A stretch of DNA of 64,000 nucleotides from Escherichia coli (lineage in GTDB: Bacteria; Pseudomonadota; Gammaproteobacteria; Enterobacterales; Enterobacteriaceae): NCBI RefSeq assembly GCF_048403405.1, contig NZ_CP183129.1. The stretch is one strand, 5' to 3'. Numbering within the stretch: the stretch's first letter is position 1; the number at the start of each line of letters is the position of its first letter. Below the pieces are notes generated by a model, which worked only from the letters and a program-made list of their open reading frames with translations, searched no databases and was not told where the DNA came from. Positions 1 to 15,342 of the stretch are shown piece after piece. The translations under genes were made by a program, and so were the position numbers.

Positions 1-2
1 AT

Positions 3-551
3 CCGGTCAGCGATAACGCGGCGCTGACTGGGTTAAGTAAGCTTTTCCGGCACATTCAACCCGCCGTGAACGATCCTCAGGATCTGCGCGCAAAACTGGA
101 AATGCTGTGGGCGTCTTACTATGGCGGCGTAGCGATAACCCATGCGGGCACGCATCTCGTTCATGCGCTCTCCTACCCGTTAGGTGGCAAATATCATCTG
201 CCGCATGGCGTCGCGAATGCCATCTTGCTGGCGCCGTGCATGGCGTTTGTTCGCCCCTGGGCGGTCGAGAAATTTGCCCGGGTCTGGGATTGCATTCCCG
301 ATGCGGAAACCGCCCTGAGCGCGGAAGAAAAATCTCATGCCCTGGTGGCCTGGCTACAGGCATTAGTCAATCAACTCAAGCTACCCAACAATCTCGCGGA
401 TCTCGGCGTACCGCCAGAGGATATTGCCTCTCTTAGCGAGGCGGCACTGAACGTGAAGCGCCTTATGAACAATGCGCCGTGCCAGCTTGATCTACAGGAC
501 GTACAGGCCATTTACCAAACACTGTTTCCGCAACATCAATTTAAGGAATAA
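3..551 (+). CDS. Iron-containing alcohol dehydrogenase family protein, C-terminal part (gene continues upstream of the window)
   Basis: Open frame runs from the window edge to the stop at 551. The His-rich motif THAGTHLVHALSYPLGGKYHLPHGVANAILL resembles the metal-binding region of FucO/YqhD-type Fe-ADHs. The stop lies 3 nt before the next start codon. Confidence 0.6.
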   Translation, partial: PVSDNAALTGLSKLFRHIQPAVNDPQDLRAKLEMLWASYYGGVAITHAGTHLVHALSYPLGGKYHLPHGVANAILLAPCMAFVRPWAVEKFARVWDCIPDAETALSAEEKSHALVAWLQALVNQLKLPNNLADLGVPPEDIASLSEAALNVKRLMNNAPCQLDLQDVQAIYQTLFPQHQFKE

Positions 552-554
552 ATC

Positions 555-1442
555 ATGCCGAAAACCATTGAAGGTGTATTAACCGCCATCGTCACCCCGT
601 TTACCGCGACCGGCAGTCTGAATATCCCGGCGTTAAAAGTGCAGGTGAATCGTCAACTGGAAGCGGGTAACGCGATTTTTTGCGGCGGCACCAACGGCGA
701 GTTTTTTGTGTTGAATGAACAGGAGAAGCTCAGCGTTACGCAAACCTGCGTGGATGAAGTGGCTGGTCGTGCGCCGGTCGTGGCACACATTGGCGAGATC
801 TCGACGCGCGAAACGATTCGTCTGGGTCAGCAGATTGAAAAACTTGGCGTAGATGCTGTGTCGGTCATTACCCCTTACTTCGTACCGCTGAAACAGGAAG
901 AGTTGATTGCGCATTACAGCGCAATTGCCGACGCGCTGAGCATTCCGATGTTTCTCTATAACATCCCGGCCCGCACTGGCAATACGATCCAGCCGGAAAC
1001 CGCGCGTGCTCTGGCGTCGCATCCCAATATCATTGGGATTAAAGACAGCGCCGGAAGCGACGAAAGCCTGAAGGGTTTTCTCGATGCTGTGCGCAACATT
1101 GACGGCTTTAATGTACTCAACGGCCCGGATTCGCTGATCCATAAAGGGTTTGTCGAGGGGTGTTCAGCCTGTATCTCTGGGCTCGCCAACGTCGCACCGC
1201 GGGAAATCAATGCTATCTGGTCTCGCGTCCATGCCGGTGATATTGAAGGGTCTTATGAAGCACAGGAGAGTGTAACGGGCCTGCGTACCGACCTTTATAA
1301 AGTAGCGTTCTCCCCGGCTGCGGTGAAAAAAGCGTTGCAGCTTATGGGGCATGATGTTGGTGATAGCCGCTACGCGGTTAATTTCACGCCTGAACAGATC
1401 AGCGAGATTCAACAAATTATTCGTCATTATAACATTAATTAA
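555..1442 (+). CDS. DHDPS/N-acetylneuraminate-lyase family class I aldolase
   Basis: 295 aa. GGTNGEF motif resembles GTTGES of DapA; PYF and IIGIKDSAG contain the conserved Tyr and the Schiff-base Lys context of the DapA/NanA/KDG-aldolase family. RBS AAGGA lies upstream. Confidence 0.7.
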   Translation: MPKTIEGVLTAIVTPFTATGSLNIPALKVQVNRQLEAGNAIFCGGTNGEFFVLNEQEKLSVTQTCVDEVAGRAPVVAHIGEISTRETIRLGQQIEKLGVDAVSVITPYFVPLKQEELIAHYSAIADALSIPMFLYNIPARTGNTIQPETARALASHPNIIGIKDSAGSDESLKGFLDAVRNIDGFNVLNGPDSLIHKGFVEGCSACISGLANVAPREINAIWSRVHAGDIEGSYEAQESVTGLRTDLYKVAFSPAAVKKALQLMGHDVGDSRYAVNFTPEQISEIQQIIRHYNIN

Positions 1443-1501
1443 ATTAACTCTATTATCCAGCCCGCGATAAAGTTTAGATAAAGAGAATAAAGGATTACTC
1501 C

Positions 1502-2260
1502 ATGTTTTTGTGGTTTATGCAGCCAGATATCTGGCTCACTTTAATTACCCTCACCTTTCTGGAAATTATTCTTGGGGTGGATAATATTATTTTTCTTTCA
1601 CTGGTGGTGGCAAAACTTCCGTTATCACAACAAAATATGGCGCGTAAACTGGGTTTAAGCTGCGCGATGATTATGCGGATATTATTGCTGATATCCATTG
1701 CGTGGCTTTCACATATTACCCAGCCGCTTTTTACCGTGCTGACGCTGGAGATTTCGTTCCGCACGTTGATTCTGCTCGGGGGCGGGCTGTTCCTGATTTA
1801 TAAAGCGATACAGGAGATACGCGAAGAGCTGTCGCCCGCGCAGGAAGACGAACATGGCAGCGGATCGCGGCAACTGTCGTTGTGCGGTGCCATCGTACAG
1901 ATAATGCTGCTCGATATCGTGTTTAGCCTGGATTCGGTGATCACCGCCGTCGGCCTTTCTCAGCATATATTTATCATGATTGCCGCCGTAATGATTGCCG
2001 TCGGTGTCATGATGTTTGCGGCGAAAACAATTGGTGATTTCGTTAACGCCACGCCGTCAATAAAAATACTGGCGTTAACCTTTTTATTATTTGTCGGTGT
2101 ATTGCTGGTTGCCGATAGTCTCAACATTCATATTGCCAAAGAGTATCTCTACTTCGCGATATTTTTCTCATTAAGTGTTGAGACACTCAATATTATCCGT
2201 GAAAGAAGAAATAAAAAAGTTTCGACATTGATCGAAACGCATGAATCGCACTCGCATTAA
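1502..2260 (+). CDS. TerC/YgdQ-like (UPF0053) integral membrane protein
   Basis: 252 aa polytopic protein with LEIILGVDNIIFLSLVVAKLP and LDIVFSLDSVITAVG motifs typical of the TerC family. AAAGGA RBS. Visibly lower G+C (about 40 percent by eye) than its neighbours. Confidence 0.6.
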   Translation: MFLWFMQPDIWLTLITLTFLEIILGVDNIIFLSLVVAKLPLSQQNMARKLGLSCAMIMRILLLISIAWLSHITQPLFTVLTLEISFRTLILLGGGLFLIYKAIQEIREELSPAQEDEHGSGSRQLSLCGAIVQIMLLDIVFSLDSVITAVGLSQHIFIMIAAVMIAVGVMMFAAKTIGDFVNATPSIKILALTFLLFVGVLLVADSLNIHIAKEYLYFAIFFSLSVETLNIIRERRNKKVSTLIETHESHSH

Positions 2261-2295
2261 TAAATCTATTACCGACTTTAAGATGGAGTCTAACT

Positions 2296-3465
2296 ATGTC
2301 TGTAGCCCTTATTCGTGACGGCGTCATCCGTCCATCCGAAAACGATTCGCATGTGCTTACCGCCATGCTGCCCTCGTCCTGCCCACAAAACCACGCGGCG
2401 AATATTCTGCCTTTGCCGGATGGCGCGTTAATGTGCGTCTGGTTTGCGGGAACGCAGGAAGGTATTGCCGATATTTCTGTCTGGGGATCGCGATTGCCCG
2501 CTGGCGGGATGCAGTGGAGCGATGCGGTCAAACTTTCCCACGATGACACGCGTTCAGAGCAAAACCCAGTGCTGTTTCTCGCGCCGGATAACGTGCTGTG
2601 GCTGCTATGGACCGCACAAATATCCGGGAATCAGGACACCGCCATCGTCCGCTACCGTAAGTCAGACGACCTCGGACAAACCTGGGGCGAGATTGCCACG
2701 CTGCTCGATAAACCCGGCACGTTCATTCGCCAGCCGATCACGGTGCTTGATAACGGCAACTGGCTGCTGCCCGTCTTTTATTGCCGTACCCAACCCGGTG
2801 AAAAATGGGTCGGCAATGATGATATCAGCGCAGTGAAAATTTCCGCTGACGGTGGTCACTCCTGGCGCGATGTCGTGGTGCCGCAAAGTCTCGGCTGCGT
2901 TCATATGAATATCACAATGCTGCACGACAGTACGTTGGTTGCTCTCTTTCGAAGCCGTTGGGCAGACAACATCTATATCAGCCATTCAGTGGACAACGGC
3001 GAGAGTTGGTCGGTGCCGCAAGCTACCGAATTGCCCAACAACAATTCGTCTATTCAGGTAACGACGCTTGCCAGCGGCGAACTGGCGCTGGTGTACAACG
3101 CGATGAGTGCGGCAGGCGCAGTAGAACGTCGCGCGTCGCTTTATGACGAAATCGACGATGGCGACGACAGCCGCAAAGAACCGACAGCCGTCGGACGCTC
3201 CGCTTTCTGGGGGGCCCCACGCGCGCCGATGACGGTAGCGATTTCTGCCGATGGTGGGAAAAGCTGGCCGTGGCGGCGCAATCTCGATGAAGGCGACGGC
3301 TACTGCATGACCAACAATTCCCTGGAAAAGCTAAATCGTGAGTTCTCCTACCCCAGCATCAAACAAAGCCCGGACGGTACGCTACATATCGCTTACACCT
3401 GGTGGCGTCAGGCCATCAAGTACGTGCGCATCTCCCCCGAGTGGGTTAAGGGGCAGGCATCATGA
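2296..3465 (+). CDS. BNR/Asp-box repeat sialidase-like beta-propeller protein (GH33-like), apparently cytoplasmic
   Basis: 389 aa with four Asp-box motifs (SDDLGQTW, SADGGHSW, SVDNGESW, SADGGKSW). The N-terminus has no hydrophobic signal peptide. GGAG RBS. Confidence 0.65.
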   Translation: MSVALIRDGVIRPSENDSHVLTAMLPSSCPQNHAANILPLPDGALMCVWFAGTQEGIADISVWGSRLPAGGMQWSDAVKLSHDDTRSEQNPVLFLAPDNVLWLLWTAQISGNQDTAIVRYRKSDDLGQTWGEIATLLDKPGTFIRQPITVLDNGNWLLPVFYCRTQPGEKWVGNDDISAVKISADGGHSWRDVVVPQSLGCVHMNITMLHDSTLVALFRSRWADNIYISHSVDNGESWSVPQATELPNNNSSIQVTTLASGELALVYNAMSAAGAVERRASLYDEIDDGDDSRKEPTAVGRSAFWGAPRAPMTVAISADGGKSWPWRRNLDEGDGYCMTNNSLEKLNREFSYPSIKQSPDGTLHIAYTWWRQAIKYVRISPEWVKGQAS

Positions 3466-3932
3466 TTATCGGTAATCTCAACCATTTGTCGCTGGCGGGG
3501 CTTCCCGCCTGGGTGAGAAATATTCTGCTGTGCCCGGAGTGTTCGTTATCGGCGTTATCCGCCAGAGAGGACGGTCGCTGGCAACCTGAAGGATGTCGGT
3601 GGTTCTGCACGCTGGGAACTTCAGACACGCAACCCGCCGAACTCCGCCATACGGAGTATCACCATCTGTGGGCCGATATCCAGGTGGTGATTACTGGTTG
3701 TGAGGGCATTAATGCGGGAACGCGGCCCATCGCTCGCGAAAACGATGAAGAACGTAAGCCCGATCTGTTTATCGCCCCATCCCCTGAAAACAGTGTCGCC
3801 ATCACTCTACACCCCGGTGATTTCGCCGTCTTTATGCCTGAGGAACCTCACCAGGCGCTGTGCGCGATTGGCGCGGCTACGTCAGTACGCAAAGCGGTCT
3901 TTAAGGTACCGCGCGACATGCTGGAAGCCTAA
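3462..3932 (+). CDS. YhcH/YjgK/YiaL (DUF386) family protein, NanQ/EbgC-like
   Basis: 156 aa. C-terminal GDFAVFMPEEPH closely matches the conserved motif of E. coli YhcH. Start codon overlaps the upstream stop (ATGA), suggesting translational coupling. Confidence 0.65.
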   Translation: MIIGNLNHLSLAGLPAWVRNILLCPECSLSALSAREDGRWQPEGCRWFCTLGTSDTQPAELRHTEYHHLWADIQVVITGCEGINAGTRPIARENDEERKPDLFIAPSPENSVAITLHPGDFAVFMPEEPHQALCAIGAATSVRKAVFKVPRDMLEA

Positions 3933-3945
3933 AAGGAGAGAAAAA

Positions 3946-5226
3946 ATGACAATGGAAATGATCCTGGCATTAGGAATACTGGTCCTGATGATCGTGCTGA
4001 TCATGTCGGACAAAATGCCATTTGGCGCACCGCCACTGCTTGCGTGTTTATTGCTGGTTGTCTCGGGACTTTCGACCGTTCAACAGGCTTTTGCCGGATT
4101 CGTCAATCCAAGCGTGGTGATGATTGCAGGGTTTATGGTGGTCATGGCAGCGCTACAAAAAACCCGGCTTATCAGCAACGTTAAATCTGCGATGATAAGC
4201 CTGGTCAATAAAGGCAGTTACCGCAGCTACGGGCTGTTGTTAGTCATTGTTATGCTGGGTGCCAGTCTTGCAGGCACCGGCGCGACCGGTTATTACGTGC
4301 TGATTCTGTCGCTGGTATCCACCATTCCGTACAGTAAAAAGCTACCAACATCGAAATTAATGATGCCCCTGGGATTTGCCACCAACCACCCGCTTCTTCC
4401 TATCAATCTCGCGCTTCTCTTTGGCGTTACGGCGACCGTACTCGAAACCGCGGGTTTTCATCAGGAGATTTCGATGGGGCGCTTTGCGCTGGTGAATCTC
4501 ATCATGTCAGCGGCGTTCCTCGCATGGAGTCTTATTGCCTACCGTTTTCTTCCGGATCATCCCATTGCGGATGCTTCCGAGGATGCGCTGGCGGCACGCG
4601 AGGAAACGTTTAACGCCCTTCCTGCCTGGAAAGAATATTGCACTATTGCCGCATTCGCTGTCAGCGTTATCGGCATGATGCTAATGAACATTCTGGGAAA
4701 TATCGCCTTCGTTATTCCGGGTCTTGCGGGTGCGTTTGTTCTGATGATCGATGTACTGGACTTTAAAGAAGTTCGCGATCATATGGGAGCGCCGGTCATT
4801 TTAATGATGGCGGGGGTGATCGGTGTAGCTGATGCACTGGCGGGCACCGGCTTTACGGCGATGGTTGGCGATGCCGTTGCAGGTGTGCTCGGTTCTGGCG
4901 TCTCACCGTTTGTATTTATTGTCGCCTTTGCTTTGCTTACCAGTACCTGCGCCACCTTCACGGGTTCGAATATGGGGTCTGTTTATATTTTTGCCCCCAT
5001 CGCCATTGCCGCCTGTACCAGCCTTGGGCTTAACCCGACCGCTGCAGCGATTGCGGTGGTGATTTCAGGCTGGAACGGCGGCTATATGCCTATTGACGGA
5101 ATGCCAGCCATGATCCTCGGAATGGGGAAATACAAACTTCCCGAATTCTGGGTGTTCTCTGTACCAATGTATCTCATCCGCATTCTGGCGCTTTGTGCAG
5201 GCGCTGTTTTTATCTTCCCAATGTAA
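3946..5226 (+). CDS. Polytopic permease with two-repeat architecture (ion-transporter superfamily-like; exact family unresolved)
   Basis: 427 aa from the ATG preceded by a strong AAGGAG RBS; the ORF track's longer 508-aa frame overlaps the upstream gene. Multiple hydrophobic segments and an internal repeat (NPSVVMIAGFMVV / GAPVILMMAGVIGV). Confidence 0.5.
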   Translation: MTMEMILALGILVLMIVLIMSDKMPFGAPPLLACLLLVVSGLSTVQQAFAGFVNPSVVMIAGFMVVMAALQKTRLISNVKSAMISLVNKGSYRSYGLLLVIVMLGASLAGTGATGYYVLILSLVSTIPYSKKLPTSKLMMPLGFATNHPLLPINLALLFGVTATVLETAGFHQEISMGRFALVNLIMSAAFLAWSLIAYRFLPDHPIADASEDALAAREETFNALPAWKEYCTIAAFAVSVIGMMLMNILGNIAFVIPGLAGAFVLMIDVLDFKEVRDHMGAPVILMMAGVIGVADALAGTGFTAMVGDAVAGVLGSGVSPFVFIVAFALLTSTCATFTGSNMGSVYIFAPIAIAACTSLGLNPTAAAIAVVISGWNGGYMPIDGMPAMILGMGKYKLPEFWVFSVPMYLIRILALCAGAVFIFPM

Positions 5227-5233
5227 TCTCAGA

Positions 5234-5271
5234 CAAAAAAAGCGGCAGAGAAGATCCCTGCCGCTTTTTAT
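5234..5271. terminator. Bidirectional rho-independent terminator between the convergent permease gene and nagE
   Basis: A-tract, GC hairpin AGCGGCAG...CTGCCGCT, then T-tract. Confidence 0.55.
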
Positions 5272-5314
5272 TGTTGGATGCGACGCTGCCGTGTCGCATC
5301 AGGTATAAAGCAGA

Positions 5315-7261
5315 TTACTTTTTGATTTCATACAGCGGCGTTTGACCCGCCACGACATGGCCCTGAGCTTTAATGATCAAGCCGCTGAAATCGTCGATAT
5401 TGCTGCAAACCACCGGGCTAATCATCGAGCGGGCGTTAGCGTTCAGGTAATCCAGATCCATTTCCAGAATCGGTTGTCCTGCGCTTACCTGCGCGCCCTC
5501 TTCCACCAGACGTTTAAAACCTTTACCTTCCAGCGCTACGGTGTCGATACCCATATGGACGACGATCTCCGCGCCTTTTTCGGTTTCCAGGCAGAACGCG
5601 TGGTTGGTATTGAAGATTTTCACGATTGTCCCTGCGGCTGGTGATACGACGATTTTATCTGTCGGTTTCACCGCCACACCGTCACCCACCGCTTTGCTGG
5701 CGAATGCTTCGTCAGGAACCTGATCCAGTGCCACAACATCACCGGTAATCGGCGATACCAGCTCCGCGACAGACACCGCGTTTGGTATAGCCTGCGGTTT
5801 TGCTACAGGCGCGGCAGTTGCAGGCGCAGTTTCAGCTGACGTAGCGGCTACCGGACCACGGGCAACAACTTTCTTCATTGCATCGCCAATGGATTCCGCT
5901 TTCGCGCCAACAATCACCTGAATAGTCTGTTTGTTCAGTTTCACTACCCCAGAAGCACCCAGCCGTTTACACATCGCATCGTTGACGCGAGCCGAGTCAA
6001 CCACGGTCAGGCGCAGACGAGTAATACAGGCGTCAATTGCTTTCAGGTTGTCAGTGCCGCCAACCGCAGCAATATAGTTGGTCGCCAGTTGATTGAGGCC
6101 TTCTTCAGTGTTGCTGTTGGCTTCTTCAGTAACGATCTCATCTTCTTTATCTTCACGACCCGGCGTTTTCAGGTTGAACATGCGGATAACCAAACTGAAC
6201 ACCACGAAGTAGATAGCGAAGAAGACAACACCCATCACCAGCAGCATCCAGACGTTCTGGCTGGCGGCCGGCAGGTTATACATCAACGCGTAGTCGATAG
6301 CCCCCGCAGAGAAGGAGAAGCCCGCGTGGATACCCAGCAGCGTTGCCACAAACAGGCTGATACCGGTCAGCAGTGCGTGCAGGAGGTACAGCAGCGGCGC
6401 AAGGAACATGAACAGGAATTCCAGCGGCTCAGTCACACCGGTCAGGAACGCAGTAACAGCAACAGAAAGCAGCATACCGCCAACCATCGGACGACGCTCT
6501 TTCGGTGCTGCAAAGTACATCGCCAGCGCCGCACCCGGCAGACCGAACATCATGATCGGGAAGAAGCCGGACATGAACATCCCCGCGGTGCCGTCACCGG
6601 CATAGAAGCGGTTGATGTCACCGTGGAAAACCGTACCCGCCGCGTTGGTGAATTCACCAATCTGGAACCAGGCGATGGTGTTCAGTACCTGATGCAGACC
6701 GGTTGGGATCAGCAGACGGTTGATGAAACCAAAGATACCGGAACCCAGCGCGCCCGCAGAAACGATCCACTCGCCGCCTGCATGGATAGCGTGCTGTACC
6801 GGCGGCCAGACGTAACCAAAAATGGCCGCCAGCACCAGGCAGAAGAAGCCGGTGGCAATCGGCACAAAGCGTTTGCCGCCGAAGAAACTCAGGAAGTCCG
6901 GCAGTTTAATATCGGACCAACGGTTATAAGCTGCGCCACCAACCAGACCGGTAATGATACCCGCCAGTACACCCATGTTAATTTCCGGGTTGATGGTCAC
7001 CATCGCTTTGGTTAACACAAAGTAACCTACCGCACCCGCCAGCGCCGCCGCACCTGCGCTGTCTTTCGACCAGCTGGATGCCACACCGATGGCGAAGATT
7101 AATGCGAGGTTATCAAAAATCGCACCGCCCGCCTGGGCAATAAACGCAACGTTAAGTAAATCTGGCTGACCGAATCGCAGCAACAGCGCCGCCACCGGCA
7201 GCACCGCGATAGGGAGCTGTAACGCCCTACCGAGTCGCTGGAAAAAACCTAAAATATTCAT
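5315..7261 (-). CDS. nagE: PTS N-acetylglucosamine-specific EIICBA component
   Basis: 648 aa; sequence and position divergent from nagB match E. coli NagE. Confidence 0.93.
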   Translation of the reverse strand: MNILGFFQRLGRALQLPIAVLPVAALLLRFGQPDLLNVAFIAQAGGAIFDNLALIFAIGVASSWSKDSAGAAALAGAVGYFVLTKAMVTINPEINMGVLAGIITGLVGGAAYNRWSDIKLPDFLSFFGGKRFVPIATGFFCLVLAAIFGYVWPPVQHAIHAGGEWIVSAGALGSGIFGFINRLLIPTGLHQVLNTIAWFQIGEFTNAAGTVFHGDINRFYAGDGTAGMFMSGFFPIMMFGLPGAALAMYFAAPKERRPMVGGMLLSVAVTAFLTGVTEPLEFLFMFLAPLLYLLHALLTGISLFVATLLGIHAGFSFSAGAIDYALMYNLPAASQNVWMLLVMGVVFFAIYFVVFSLVIRMFNLKTPGREDKEDEIVTEEANSNTEEGLNQLATNYIAAVGGTDNLKAIDACITRLRLTVVDSARVNDAMCKRLGASGVVKLNKQTIQVIVGAKAESIGDAMKKVVARGPVAATSAETAPATAAPVAKPQAIPNAVSVAELVSPITGDVVALDQVPDEAFASKAVGDGVAVKPTDKIVVSPAAGTIVKIFNTNHAFCLETEKGAEIVVHMGIDTVALEGKGFKRLVEEGAQVSAGQPILEMDLDYLNANARSMISPVVCSNIDDFSGLIIKAQGHVVAGQTPLYEIKK

Positions 7262-7593
7262 CTTATTCCCCCTACGAGAACCCTATTTGGCTCGTTTAAA
7301 GCCGTATTTTTATTTTGCTGCAAATTGTACTGCCGATGTTCTGTAATCAGATTGTTAGATCATCTGCTACAGAGTGTGTGAAAATTTAATTCGTATCGCA
7401 AATTAAACGCGTGTCTTTTGTGAGTTTTGTCACCAAATATCGTTATCATCACTCCCTTTTACTGGCTAAACCAGAAAACTTATTTTATCATTCAAAAAAT
7501 CAGGTCGGATTGACGCCTGTCTGCGCAAATCCAGGTTACGCTTAAAGATGCCTAATCCGCCAACGGCTTACATTTTACTTATTGAGGTGAATA
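7262..7593. promoter_or_regulatory. Divergent nagE / nagBACD control region with CRP site and NagC operator-like palindrome
   Basis: CRP-like site TGTGAgttttgTCACC at 7419-7434; AT-rich palindrome TTAATTCGTATCGCAAATTAA at about 7386-7406 resembles a NagC operator. Confidence 0.55.
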
Positions 7594-9602
<2,009 letters not shown>

Positions 9603-14757: not shown

Positions 14758-15342
14758 ATGAATTATCAGCTATTCTCACCATTCTTTACCAAAGTCATCA
14801 TGCTGCTTATCGCATTGCTTTGCATTGTTCTTGCCTCATTTGGTATTTCTGCCCCATTTTGTTACATCGTTTTTATCGGCATCATTTTCCCCGTTGCTAT
14901 ATCAATGCGCATACACCGTCTCAATGAAACAGGAACAGCACTCACACTAACCGAAAGCTCACACTGGATCGTTTACATCCATGGTTTTCCAGCTGAGGAA
15001 CAACGTGAAGTTTTGAAAAACCCCTGTTTCTGGTCAACAGAAAGAGTGAAACAGTTTTTCCTTCGCGGTCTTGCTGGCAAGGTTATTCTTCAACTCGCCT
15101 GCCTTGCACTTCTGGTCAATGAATATTTCCGCTCAACACCAGGTTCCGGGCAAGACTTACTCGCAGCAGGCGTGCTGTTTTTTATTTTGTTTTCGATAAG
15201 CAAAAATTTCTGGACGATGTATCTTCTCGCCACAGATAAATGGCAGTGCGAATCCCTGACCACCACCAGCGGTAGCCTTTGGTATCAGGGATTTCTGTGT
15301 AAAGGAAACAGAAGAGTTACGCTGTTTTCGCGGCTGGTGTAA
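14758..15342 (+). CDS. Hypothetical small polytopic membrane protein (194 aa), AT-rich, no recognisable family
   Basis: ORF with AAGGA RBS 8 nt upstream; about four predicted hydrophobic helices. G+C roughly 40 percent by eye against about 50 percent for neighbours. Stop lies 6 nt from the convergent ubiF stop. Confidence 0.45.
   Translation: MNYQLFSPFFTKVIMLLIALLCIVLASFGISAPFCYIVFIGIIFPVAISMRIHRLNETGTALTLTESSHWIVYIHGFPAEEQREVLKNPCFWSTERVKQFFLRGLAGKVILQLACLALLVNEYFRSTPGSGQDLLAAGVLFFILFSISKNFWTMYLLATDKWQCESLTTTSGSLWYQGFLCKGNRRVTLFSRLV

Follow-up and report, generated by a model that had tools for sequence, protein, structure and literature searches.

The nagE-side border of a metabolic island without mobility genes in Escherichia coli: probable insertion at microhomologies and a shared nagE terminator

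The window analysed here is a stretch of 64,000 nucleotides from Escherichia coli (contig NZ_CP183129.1 of assembly GCF_048403405.1), and all coordinates refer to it unless another locus is named. It opens on the right-hand part of a cluster of metabolic genes, the last of which encodes a permease that faces nagE, the first gene of the chromosomal backbone, in convergent orientation (Table 1); the nagE stop reads TTA, the reverse complement of TAA, at 5315-5317. According to the original prediction, only 88 nt separate the two stop codons, and this space is filled by a single bidirectional terminator with an A-tract, a hairpin and a T-tract. The distance is exact (5227-5314), and a terminator of that build is indeed present, but it takes up just 35 of the 88 nt and is adjoined by a second palindrome.

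Table 1. Features at the left end of the window and around the gap between the permease gene and nagE
Feature	Position	Strand	Sequence or remark	Basis
Island, right-hand 5.2 kb	1-5234	+		ORFs, family assignments, RefSeq annotation of GN02461
Fe-ADH gene, 3' part	to 551	+		ORF and family assignment
DHDPS/NanA-family aldolase gene	555-1442	+		ORF and family assignment
TerC gene	1502-2260	+		ORF and family assignment
Gene for BNR_2 'sialidase-like' protein	2296-3465	+		ORF and family assignment
YhcH/NanQ-like gene	3462-3932	+		ORF and family assignment
SLC13/DASS-family permease gene	3946-5226	+	stop TAA at 5224-5226	ORF list, family assignment
Tail after the permease stop	5227-5234		TCTCAGAC, 8 nt; end of island	
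Right crossover interval (proposed)	5235-5244		microhomology AAAAAAAGCG	limits of alignments with island-free strains and Pseudocitrobacter
Symmetric intrinsic terminator (predicted)	5235-5269	both	A7/hairpin/T5	folding, comparison with island-free strains
 A-tract	5235-5241		A7	
 hairpin	5242-5264		GCGGCAG-AGAAGATCC-CTGCCGC	
 5' stem arm	5242-5248		GCGGCAG	
 loop	5249-5257		9 nt	
 3' stem arm	5258-5264		CTGCCGC	
 T-tract	5265-5269		T5	
 following bases	5270-5274		ATTGT	
REP-like palindrome	5275-5303		TGGATGCGACGCTGCCGTGTCGCATCAGG, 29 nt; between terminator and nagE stop	folding, REP pattern
nagE (GlcNAc PTS IIABC)	5315-7261	-		NCBIfam NF007608 (1445.9 bits), RefSeq annotation

The part of the cluster that precedes the window was read from strain GN02461 (NZ_CP095533.1, here L001), in which the coordinate is that of the window plus 15000 and which shows one mismatch over the first 22,300 nt of the window. 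That sole difference, at window 15144, falls in a gene for a 'hypothetical protein' (WP_001109102.1, window ~14758-15342) located between the tRNA-Met/Leu/Gln cluster and ubiF. The gene is missing from this place in the ST131 strain 2822, in NRG857C and in a musk-deer strain; in ST131 strain 2822, another hypothetical gene separates the tRNA cluster from asnB instead.

In GN02461 the cluster lies between glnS and nagE and consists of nine genes, encoding a DeoR/GlpR regulator, a PdxA2-type dehydrogenase, a DUF1537 kinase, an iron-dependent alcohol dehydrogenase (Fe-ADH), a DHDPS-family aldolase, TerC, a BNR_2 protein, YhcH and the SLC13 permease. RefSeq names the PdxA2 protein 'D-threonate 4-phosphate dehydrogenase', the kinase 'DtnK' and the BNR_2 protein 'sialidase family'. 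The island so defined is about 9.1 kb long (about 9,123 bp, from L001 11112 to window 5234, with an ambiguity of 7-10 nt at each end), and its other boundary, expected by the original prediction to lie outside the window, is found 3,889 nt to the left of position 1, at L001 11111/11112.

With its perfectly palindromic stem between A7 and T5, the element behind the permease gene is predicted to terminate transcription in both directions. It folds at -21.7 kcal/mol on the plus strand (z = -7.1) and at -25.0 kcal/mol on the minus strand (z = -8.3), with 0 of 200 shuffled sequences folding as well in either case. On the minus strand U7 (5241-5235) follows directly 3' of the stem, and on the plus strand the stem is followed by U5 and then AUUGUU (5265-5275). 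From what is known of intrinsic terminators, the predicted ends are about 5238-5235, in the U7 run, for nagE transcripts and about 5269-5274, in the U5 run, for transcripts of the permease operon. Full-length RNA profiling of E. coli has revealed bidirectional intrinsic terminators between convergent genes across the genome. The present element is like them in being a G+C-rich hairpin between convergent stops, stable on both strands and bordered by an A-tract and a T-tract, so that each side has its U-tract; it is unlike them in that the sharing would be secondary, the permease cluster having arrived horizontally and lost its own terminator.

The 5' arm and the loop of the hairpin are the same downstream of nagE in K-12 and in all island-free strains examined, and most likely the hairpin is the terminator resident at nagE, which now also faces the permease operon. 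A simple consensus terminator scanner did not call the element at 5235-5269, because its nominal loop of 9 nt exceeds the scanner's limit of 8; the scanner's call inside the open reading frame at 5186-5206 was set aside, as such calls occur at chance rate (2 found versus 1.2 expected). An Rfam scan of 4900-5600 (E <= 1) gave only chance matches to RcsR1, STnc420 and the CsrC tail, far under the gathering scores. In the MG1655 record, the nagE-glnS spacer carries no annotated REP or terminator feature. Mapped nagE RNA 3' ends were not found in the searchable supplements of two studies (eLife 2021, PMC7815308; NAR 2022, PMC9122600), and a literature search for a terminator between nagE and glnS returned nothing relevant.

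The second palindrome of the gap has a stem of 8-10 bp (GATGCGAC / GTCGCATC) and is separated from the nagE stop by 11 nt. It is also present in K-12 and other island-free strains; it belongs to the backbone and is independent of the terminator. Like REP/BIME elements it is extragenic, GC-rich and imperfect, with a GATGCGACGC..GTCGCATCAGG core and several related copies per genome, and unlike them it has no REP annotation in the MG1655 record and only about four related places per genome (a 42-nt query around the palindrome found a median of 4 and a maximum of 11 per E. coli genome, at the sensitivity used). It is the only copy of the strict REP pattern in the window, where a search with 10-mer cores gave, besides 5275-5303, only two 10-mers at chance level. 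Strain PF9285 (L003 2890-3010, corresponding to window 5265-5292) has a third backbone allele at this place, with 13 extra nt after the terminator and an insertion of 52 nt inside the palindrome, which adds a canonical REP pair (GTAGGCCTGATAAGACGCG unit) and brings the glnS-nagE spacer to 267 bp versus 202 bp.

The boundary between island and backbone was predicted to lie within or right beside the terminator, and comparison with other genomes places it at 5235-5244, in the A-tract and the first three bases of the stem. Two sets of alignments set these limits. When the junction is compared with K-12 and other genomes with an empty site, as the original prediction had recommended, homology to the island-free type begins at 5232-5235: island-free E. 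coli genomes align from 5232, 5233 or 5235 rightwards, while a minority align only from 5293 because of a REP expansion of the PF9285 type. From the other side, BLAST alignments with two contigs of Pseudocitrobacter that carry the cluster (L015 and L072) both stop at L001 20244, which is window 5244. Behind the permease stop, L072 is identical to E. coli at 15 of 18 nt and L015 at 14 of 18 nt, and beyond these 18 nt the hairpins differ, the one in Pseudocitrobacter being GCGTTCCTTT..AAAGGGACGC. After the permease stop, E. coli carriers read TCTCAGACAAAAAAAGCG and then GCAGAG..., and L072 reads CCTCAGGCAAGAAAAGCG and then TTCCTTTCAAATAAAGGGACGCTTT, with its own hairpin of -19.8 kcal/mol; at the same place island-free E. 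coli reads ...GATGAAAAAAAAAGCG and then GCAGAG.... The ends shared by the two sides coincide in AAAAAAAGCG, which corresponds to AAGAAAAGCG / AAATAAAGCG in the proxy donors, and the right crossover is therefore placed at 5235-5244. The island would thus have kept the first bases of its own terminator before running on into that of nagE.

At the left junction, K-12-type empty sites align with the carrier up to L001 11103 and CB8671-type sites up to 11111. The ~135 bp between the junction and the stop of the DeoR gene are a wrecked gene for a LysR-type regulator, which stands intact beside the cluster in the Enterobacteriaceae genome L014 (1378-2259) and in Pseudocitrobacter vendiensis (L015, 678-1550). 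The junction falls on GTGAAAA, common to the backbone TTAGTGAAAA and to codons 49-51 of the LysR-type gene of L014, TTCGTGAAAA, so that the gene is cut at about codon 50. Within the remnant, L001 11138-11173 is identical at 36 of 36 nt to codons 63-74 of the LysR-type gene of P. vendiensis (L015 865-900); since the last ~25 codons of the gene follow directly after this segment, the remnant has suffered an internal deletion, which came later than the cut. For a pseudogene, an identity of 36/36 to P. vendiensis is unexpectedly perfect, compared with 86% for the rest of the island.

The island occupies the interval between the nagE terminator and the glnS promoter, and its left junction lies 17 nt upstream of the -35 hexamer of the predicted glnS promoter (TTGTCA, 17-nt spacer, GATCAT); what precedes this essential tRNA-synthetase gene therefore depends on whether a strain carries the island. 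The DeoR/PdxA2/DtnK operon points in the same direction as glnS, with only the LysR remnant standing before the glnS promoter (L001 11104-11246). No terminator is recognisable in this interval on the strand of the DeoR operon, and read-through from the operon into glnS is conceivable.

The empty sites show what the island replaced. In K-12 the glnS-nagE spacer is 202 bp long and, in the orientation of the window, comprises the glnS promoter, 44 bp (TTTTAAAATTGATAATCTAACAAGGATTATGGGGATGATTGATG), A9, the hairpin, the REP-like palindrome and the nagE stop. A second empty allele, found in CB8671, N-01, AST215 and PF9285, has AGTGAAAA followed by TCGAAAATCTCACTGAGATTATGGGGATGATTGATG in place of the 44 bp. 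Carriers retain AGTGAAAA and lack the next 36 bp, so that the island replaces 36 bp of spacer, or 44 bp relative to the K-12 type. To see whether the 36-bp filler might be a scar left by deletion, it was compared with the island, and the matches, of <=11 nt, were at chance level; as the filler has no counterpart in the island, the empty allele could not arise again by simply deleting the island. We infer that the empty spacer is ancestral to the island. The two fillers (L002 5948-5991 versus L005 2948-2991) differ from each other at ~9 of 44 positions (~20%), against ~2% in the flanking genes. The filler of the CB8671 type contains a perfect 7-1-7 palindrome, AATCTCA-C-TGAGATT, and some annotations place a 41-aa 'hypothetical protein' across the empty-site filler and the terminator.

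Sequence to the left of the terminator is not part of the backbone in most E. coli, as the original prediction implied. A query with window 1-7300 found nagE in 5,424 of 5,426 complete E. coli genomes, and the part left of the terminator in only 1,042 (19%). Probes for the individual junctions gave matching counts: 1,044 genomes cover the right one (5100-5320), with identities of 97.3-100%, and 1,048 cover the left one. Carriers therefore number ~1,042-1,048 of 5,426, about one in five, with the island between glnS and nagE and with both junctions uniform in every carrier examined. The lineage of the window and phylogroup B2 (ST131, NRG857C) are ~1-2.5% apart in the island and 2-5% apart in the flanks. 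Beyond E. coli, a representative of a second Escherichia species (Escherichia sp. MOD1-EC7003, L035) has an island that is 91% identical and agrees in site and junctions. Because the junctions are common to all carriers and to this second species, and because divergence in the island is similar to that in its flanks, we consider the insertion old and probably a single event. Close relatives of the window lineage nonetheless lack the island (CB8671 and ST2747, with glnS 0.1-0.8% different), and its presence or absence must therefore since have been exchanged by homologous recombination in the flanks. The island thus appears to be non-mobile, being passed on by vertical descent and gained or lost through recombination between flanking sequences. 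A 10-kb contig of a metagenome-assembled genome labelled Citrobacter sp. (L011, DXKH01000039.1) also bears the island, with junctions identical to those of E. coli B2 and proteins 96-100% identical; the contig probably derives from E. coli and was misplaced in a Citrobacter bin.

Outside Escherichia, a scan with the permease protein over one genome per species revealed the nine genes in the same order in Pseudocitrobacter vendiensis (78-98% amino acid identity per gene), in the Klebsiella oxytoca group (L012, L013, L020), in the Enterobacteriaceae genome L014 and in Kluyvera (L047, L070), in all cases in genomic contexts other than glnS/nagE. A core of six genes is widespread in Bacillota. The E. 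coli island is colinear with that of P. vendiensis, with 86.1% identity over 9,013 nt from the DeoR stop to L001 20244, and matches the second Pseudocitrobacter contig, L072, at 94.9% over 507 nt. The island of the second Escherichia species is 92-98% identical to that of E. coli save for most of the permease gene (L035 ~8140-9290, corresponding to window ~4050-5200). There the identity falls to 52-84% at the nucleotide level, and the protein is of Kluyvera type, with 86-89% amino acid identity to the proteins of L070 and L047 versus 75% to that of E. coli; the first ~100 nt and the last ~30-70 nt of the gene are E. coli-like. This looks like an internal allelic replacement.

The island has already been published as "GR 6 nagE..glnS" of the extraintestinal pathogenic (ExPEC) strain BEN2908 (700554..710344; PLoS One 2026, PMC12928451), and is reported there to be complete in APEC O1, IMT5155, RS218, IHE3034, 78-Pyelo, CFT073 and LF82, with its function uncharacterised. 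The gene predictions given for GR 6 comprise a CitT-like permease, an EbgC/NanQ-like and a COG4692 sialidase-like protein, DapA-like, Fe-ADH, OtnK/DtnK-like, PdxA2 and GlpR-like proteins (PMC12928451), and match those for the island described here, at the same locus. Relative to the B2 copies, the lineage to which the copy in the window belongs has diverged by ~2%. The passages on GR 6 define the region by gene-level limits, and do not give junctions at the level of bases, the replaced 36-44 bp, the LysR remnant or the shared terminator; nor do they mention the copies of the cluster in Pseudocitrobacter, Klebsiella and Kluyvera, and a search of the main text for 'Pseudocitrobacter' was negative (PMC12928451). 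What is added here to the known island is base-level detail, namely the crossover intervals, the replaced filler, the LysR remnant and the loss of the island's own terminator.

Taken together, we propose, with a probability of roughly 80%, that an old, non-mobile island of metabolic genes has its right edge in the gap between the permease gene and nagE, that it entered by illegitimate recombination at two microhomologies and that it shares the terminator of nagE. On the left, the crossover would have joined the backbone sequence TTAGTGAAAA to TTCGTGAAAA in a LysR-type gene that lay beside the donor's cluster. At the right end, the A-tract and GCG of the nagE terminator would have been joined to an A-rich run and GCG opening the cluster's own terminator, which was cut after the first three bases of its stem, with loss of its hairpin. 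With that hairpin gone, the resident nagE terminator would be the stop signal for both convergent transcripts. The ends of the island cut through elements that are whole elsewhere, both junctions show microhomologies of 7-10 nt and 36 bp of target were lost, which together argue for illegitimate recombination and not site-specific integration. Short identity at both junctions, truncated donor elements and the lack of a target duplication were found in comparison with proxy donors; as Pseudocitrobacter (86-95% nucleotide identity) and L014 are only proxies, the lengths of the microhomologies are approximate.

Acquisition of integrase-free accessory regions ('islets') by illegitimate or microhomology-mediated recombination is an established concept. 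The island resembles such islets in its presence or absence at a fixed site, its lack of mobility genes, its microhomologies of 7-10 nt, the small target deletion and the truncation of donor elements, and it differs from them in that its donor is only approximated and that it apparently moves between lineages by homologous recombination in the flanks. With classical genomic islands it shares variable presence at a fixed chromosomal site, but it lacks an integrase, a tRNA or tmRNA target, flanking repeats and an atypical base composition. The original prediction had seen no direct repeats, integrase gene or tRNA fragment on the nagE side, and this absence extends to the whole island: its nine genes are all metabolic, transport or regulatory, no integrase or transposase is annotated among them, neither the island nor its flanks contain a tRNA gene (L001 9000-23000), and the longest repeats shared by its ends, 7 nt direct and 8 nt inverted, stay at chance level, the mode in shuffled sequences being 7 nt. 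G+C content offers no contrast either, being 0.48-0.57 in windows of the island and 0.48-0.56 in the flanks. These features, along with the deletion rather than duplication of 36 bp of target and the passage of both ends through functional donor elements, make it extremely unlikely that the island was integrated by a since-decayed site-specific element, whether an integrase with an att site or a transposon, for which the sole favourable point is the presence of the cluster in different genomic contexts in different genera.

If the island were ancestral to E. coli and had been lost from most strains, the empty sites would be deletion scars. The identity of the junctions in the second Escherichia species and in divergent E. 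coli lineages is compatible with such a history, as is a divergence comparable with that of the flanks. However, the empty sites hold 36-44 bp that are missing from carriers and are not derived from the island, which deletion cannot create, and the alleles of this filler differ at ~9 of 44 positions, implying a long independent history. The ends of the island, a truncated gene and a truncated terminator that are intact elsewhere, are furthermore the marks of an inserted fragment, and we give an ancestral island very little credence. Scarcely more probable is a boundary farther to the right, between 5270 and the REP-like palindrome, with a terminator that came with the island and merely resembles that of nagE. 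Such an origin would account for the fact that ~1,042 of the 1,075 genomes with the terminator allele of the window are island carriers, and for CB8671 (nagE 0.63% from the window lineage), which lacks the island and pairs a window-type REP with a terminator of K-12 type, as would be expected had terminator and island been removed together by a crossover on the REP side of the terminator, between the two elements. It is largely refuted by 33 island-free genomes, from at least three flank backgrounds, that have the same allele. Moreover, the window does not differ from K-12 in A-tract, 5' arm or loop, the most similar foreign copies of the island carry another hairpin beyond the 18 nt in common, and linkage over <30 bp explains the association without further assumptions.

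In their terminator alleles, K-12 and CB8671 read ..GATCTCCACCGCTTGTCATTG and the window reads ..GATCCCTGCCGCTTTTTATTG, with five changes in 13 nt (5257-5269). Both fold well on the nagE-sense strand, at -17.5 kcal/mol with U9 for K-12 and -25.0 kcal/mol with U7 for the window. On the permease-sense strand the allele of the window forms its full stem at -21.7 kcal/mol, followed by U5, and that of K-12 reaches -12.7 kcal/mol with no U tract (CUUGUCAUUG). Of the 1,075 genomes with the symmetric allele (..ATCCCTGCCGCTTTTTATTG), ~1,042 are island carriers and 33 are island-free, the latter belonging to at least three flank backgrounds (N-01/MS1718, ST2747 and O158:H23); the notion that the allele is exclusive to carriers is thereby ruled out. 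In the second Escherichia species the allele is intermediate and less symmetric (-13.9 kcal/mol on the plus strand, with an interrupted U tract), and as this genome carries the island, a perfect bidirectional terminator is not required for carriage. It is doubtful that the nagE terminator was remodelled by selection after the convergent operon arrived, with five substitutions turning a one-way into a two-way signal. Such remodelling is favoured by the 1,042 of 1,075 symmetric-allele genomes that carry the island, and weakened by the 33 island-free ones and by the intermediate allele of the second species. Since the allele lies <30 bp from the junction, tight linkage to the island is expected without selection.

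The gene content of the island hints at its role. Acid-sugar catabolic clusters with PdxA2 and DUF1537 proteins serve the D-threonate, L-threonate and D-erythronate pathways. Clusters of this kind are also cited in the account of GR 6 (PMC12928451). The island is like them in having a DUF1537 kinase annotated DtnK and a PdxA2 protein annotated D-threonate 4-phosphate dehydrogenase, and unlike them in adding an aldolase, Fe-ADH, a BNR_2 propeller, YhcH and a DASS permease. These extra genes suggest a longer pathway with D-threonate only at its end. The gene set of the whole island (L001 11247-15551 and window 1-5226) might fit the catabolism of a 7-carbon 2-keto-3-deoxy diacid, possibly 3-deoxy-D-lyxo-heptulosaric acid (Dha), which is a sugar of pectin RG-II. 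After uptake via the DASS permease, the DHDPS-type aldolase would cleave the substrate to pyruvate and a C4 aldehyde-acid, which Fe-ADH would reduce to D-threonate, as the D-lyxo stereocentres give D-threo; DtnK and PdxA2 would then convert D-threonate to DHAP and CO2. The cluster is found in pectinolytic taxa, namely the K. oxytoca group, Pectobacterium, Brenneria, Paenibacillus and Lachnospiraceae. A literature search returned no paper linking heptulosaric acid with threonate, and a search of PDB sequences with the BNR_2 protein gave no relative.

The present analysis changes no general view, but provides an account, at the level of bases, of how a cluster without mobility genes entered a chromosome. 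Should the remodelling of the nagE terminator prove true, it would be a natural example of the co-option and tuning of a terminator after horizontal transfer. For a widespread ExPEC-associated island, exact borders are now given, which are useful for clean deletions and for the annotation of pan-genomes.
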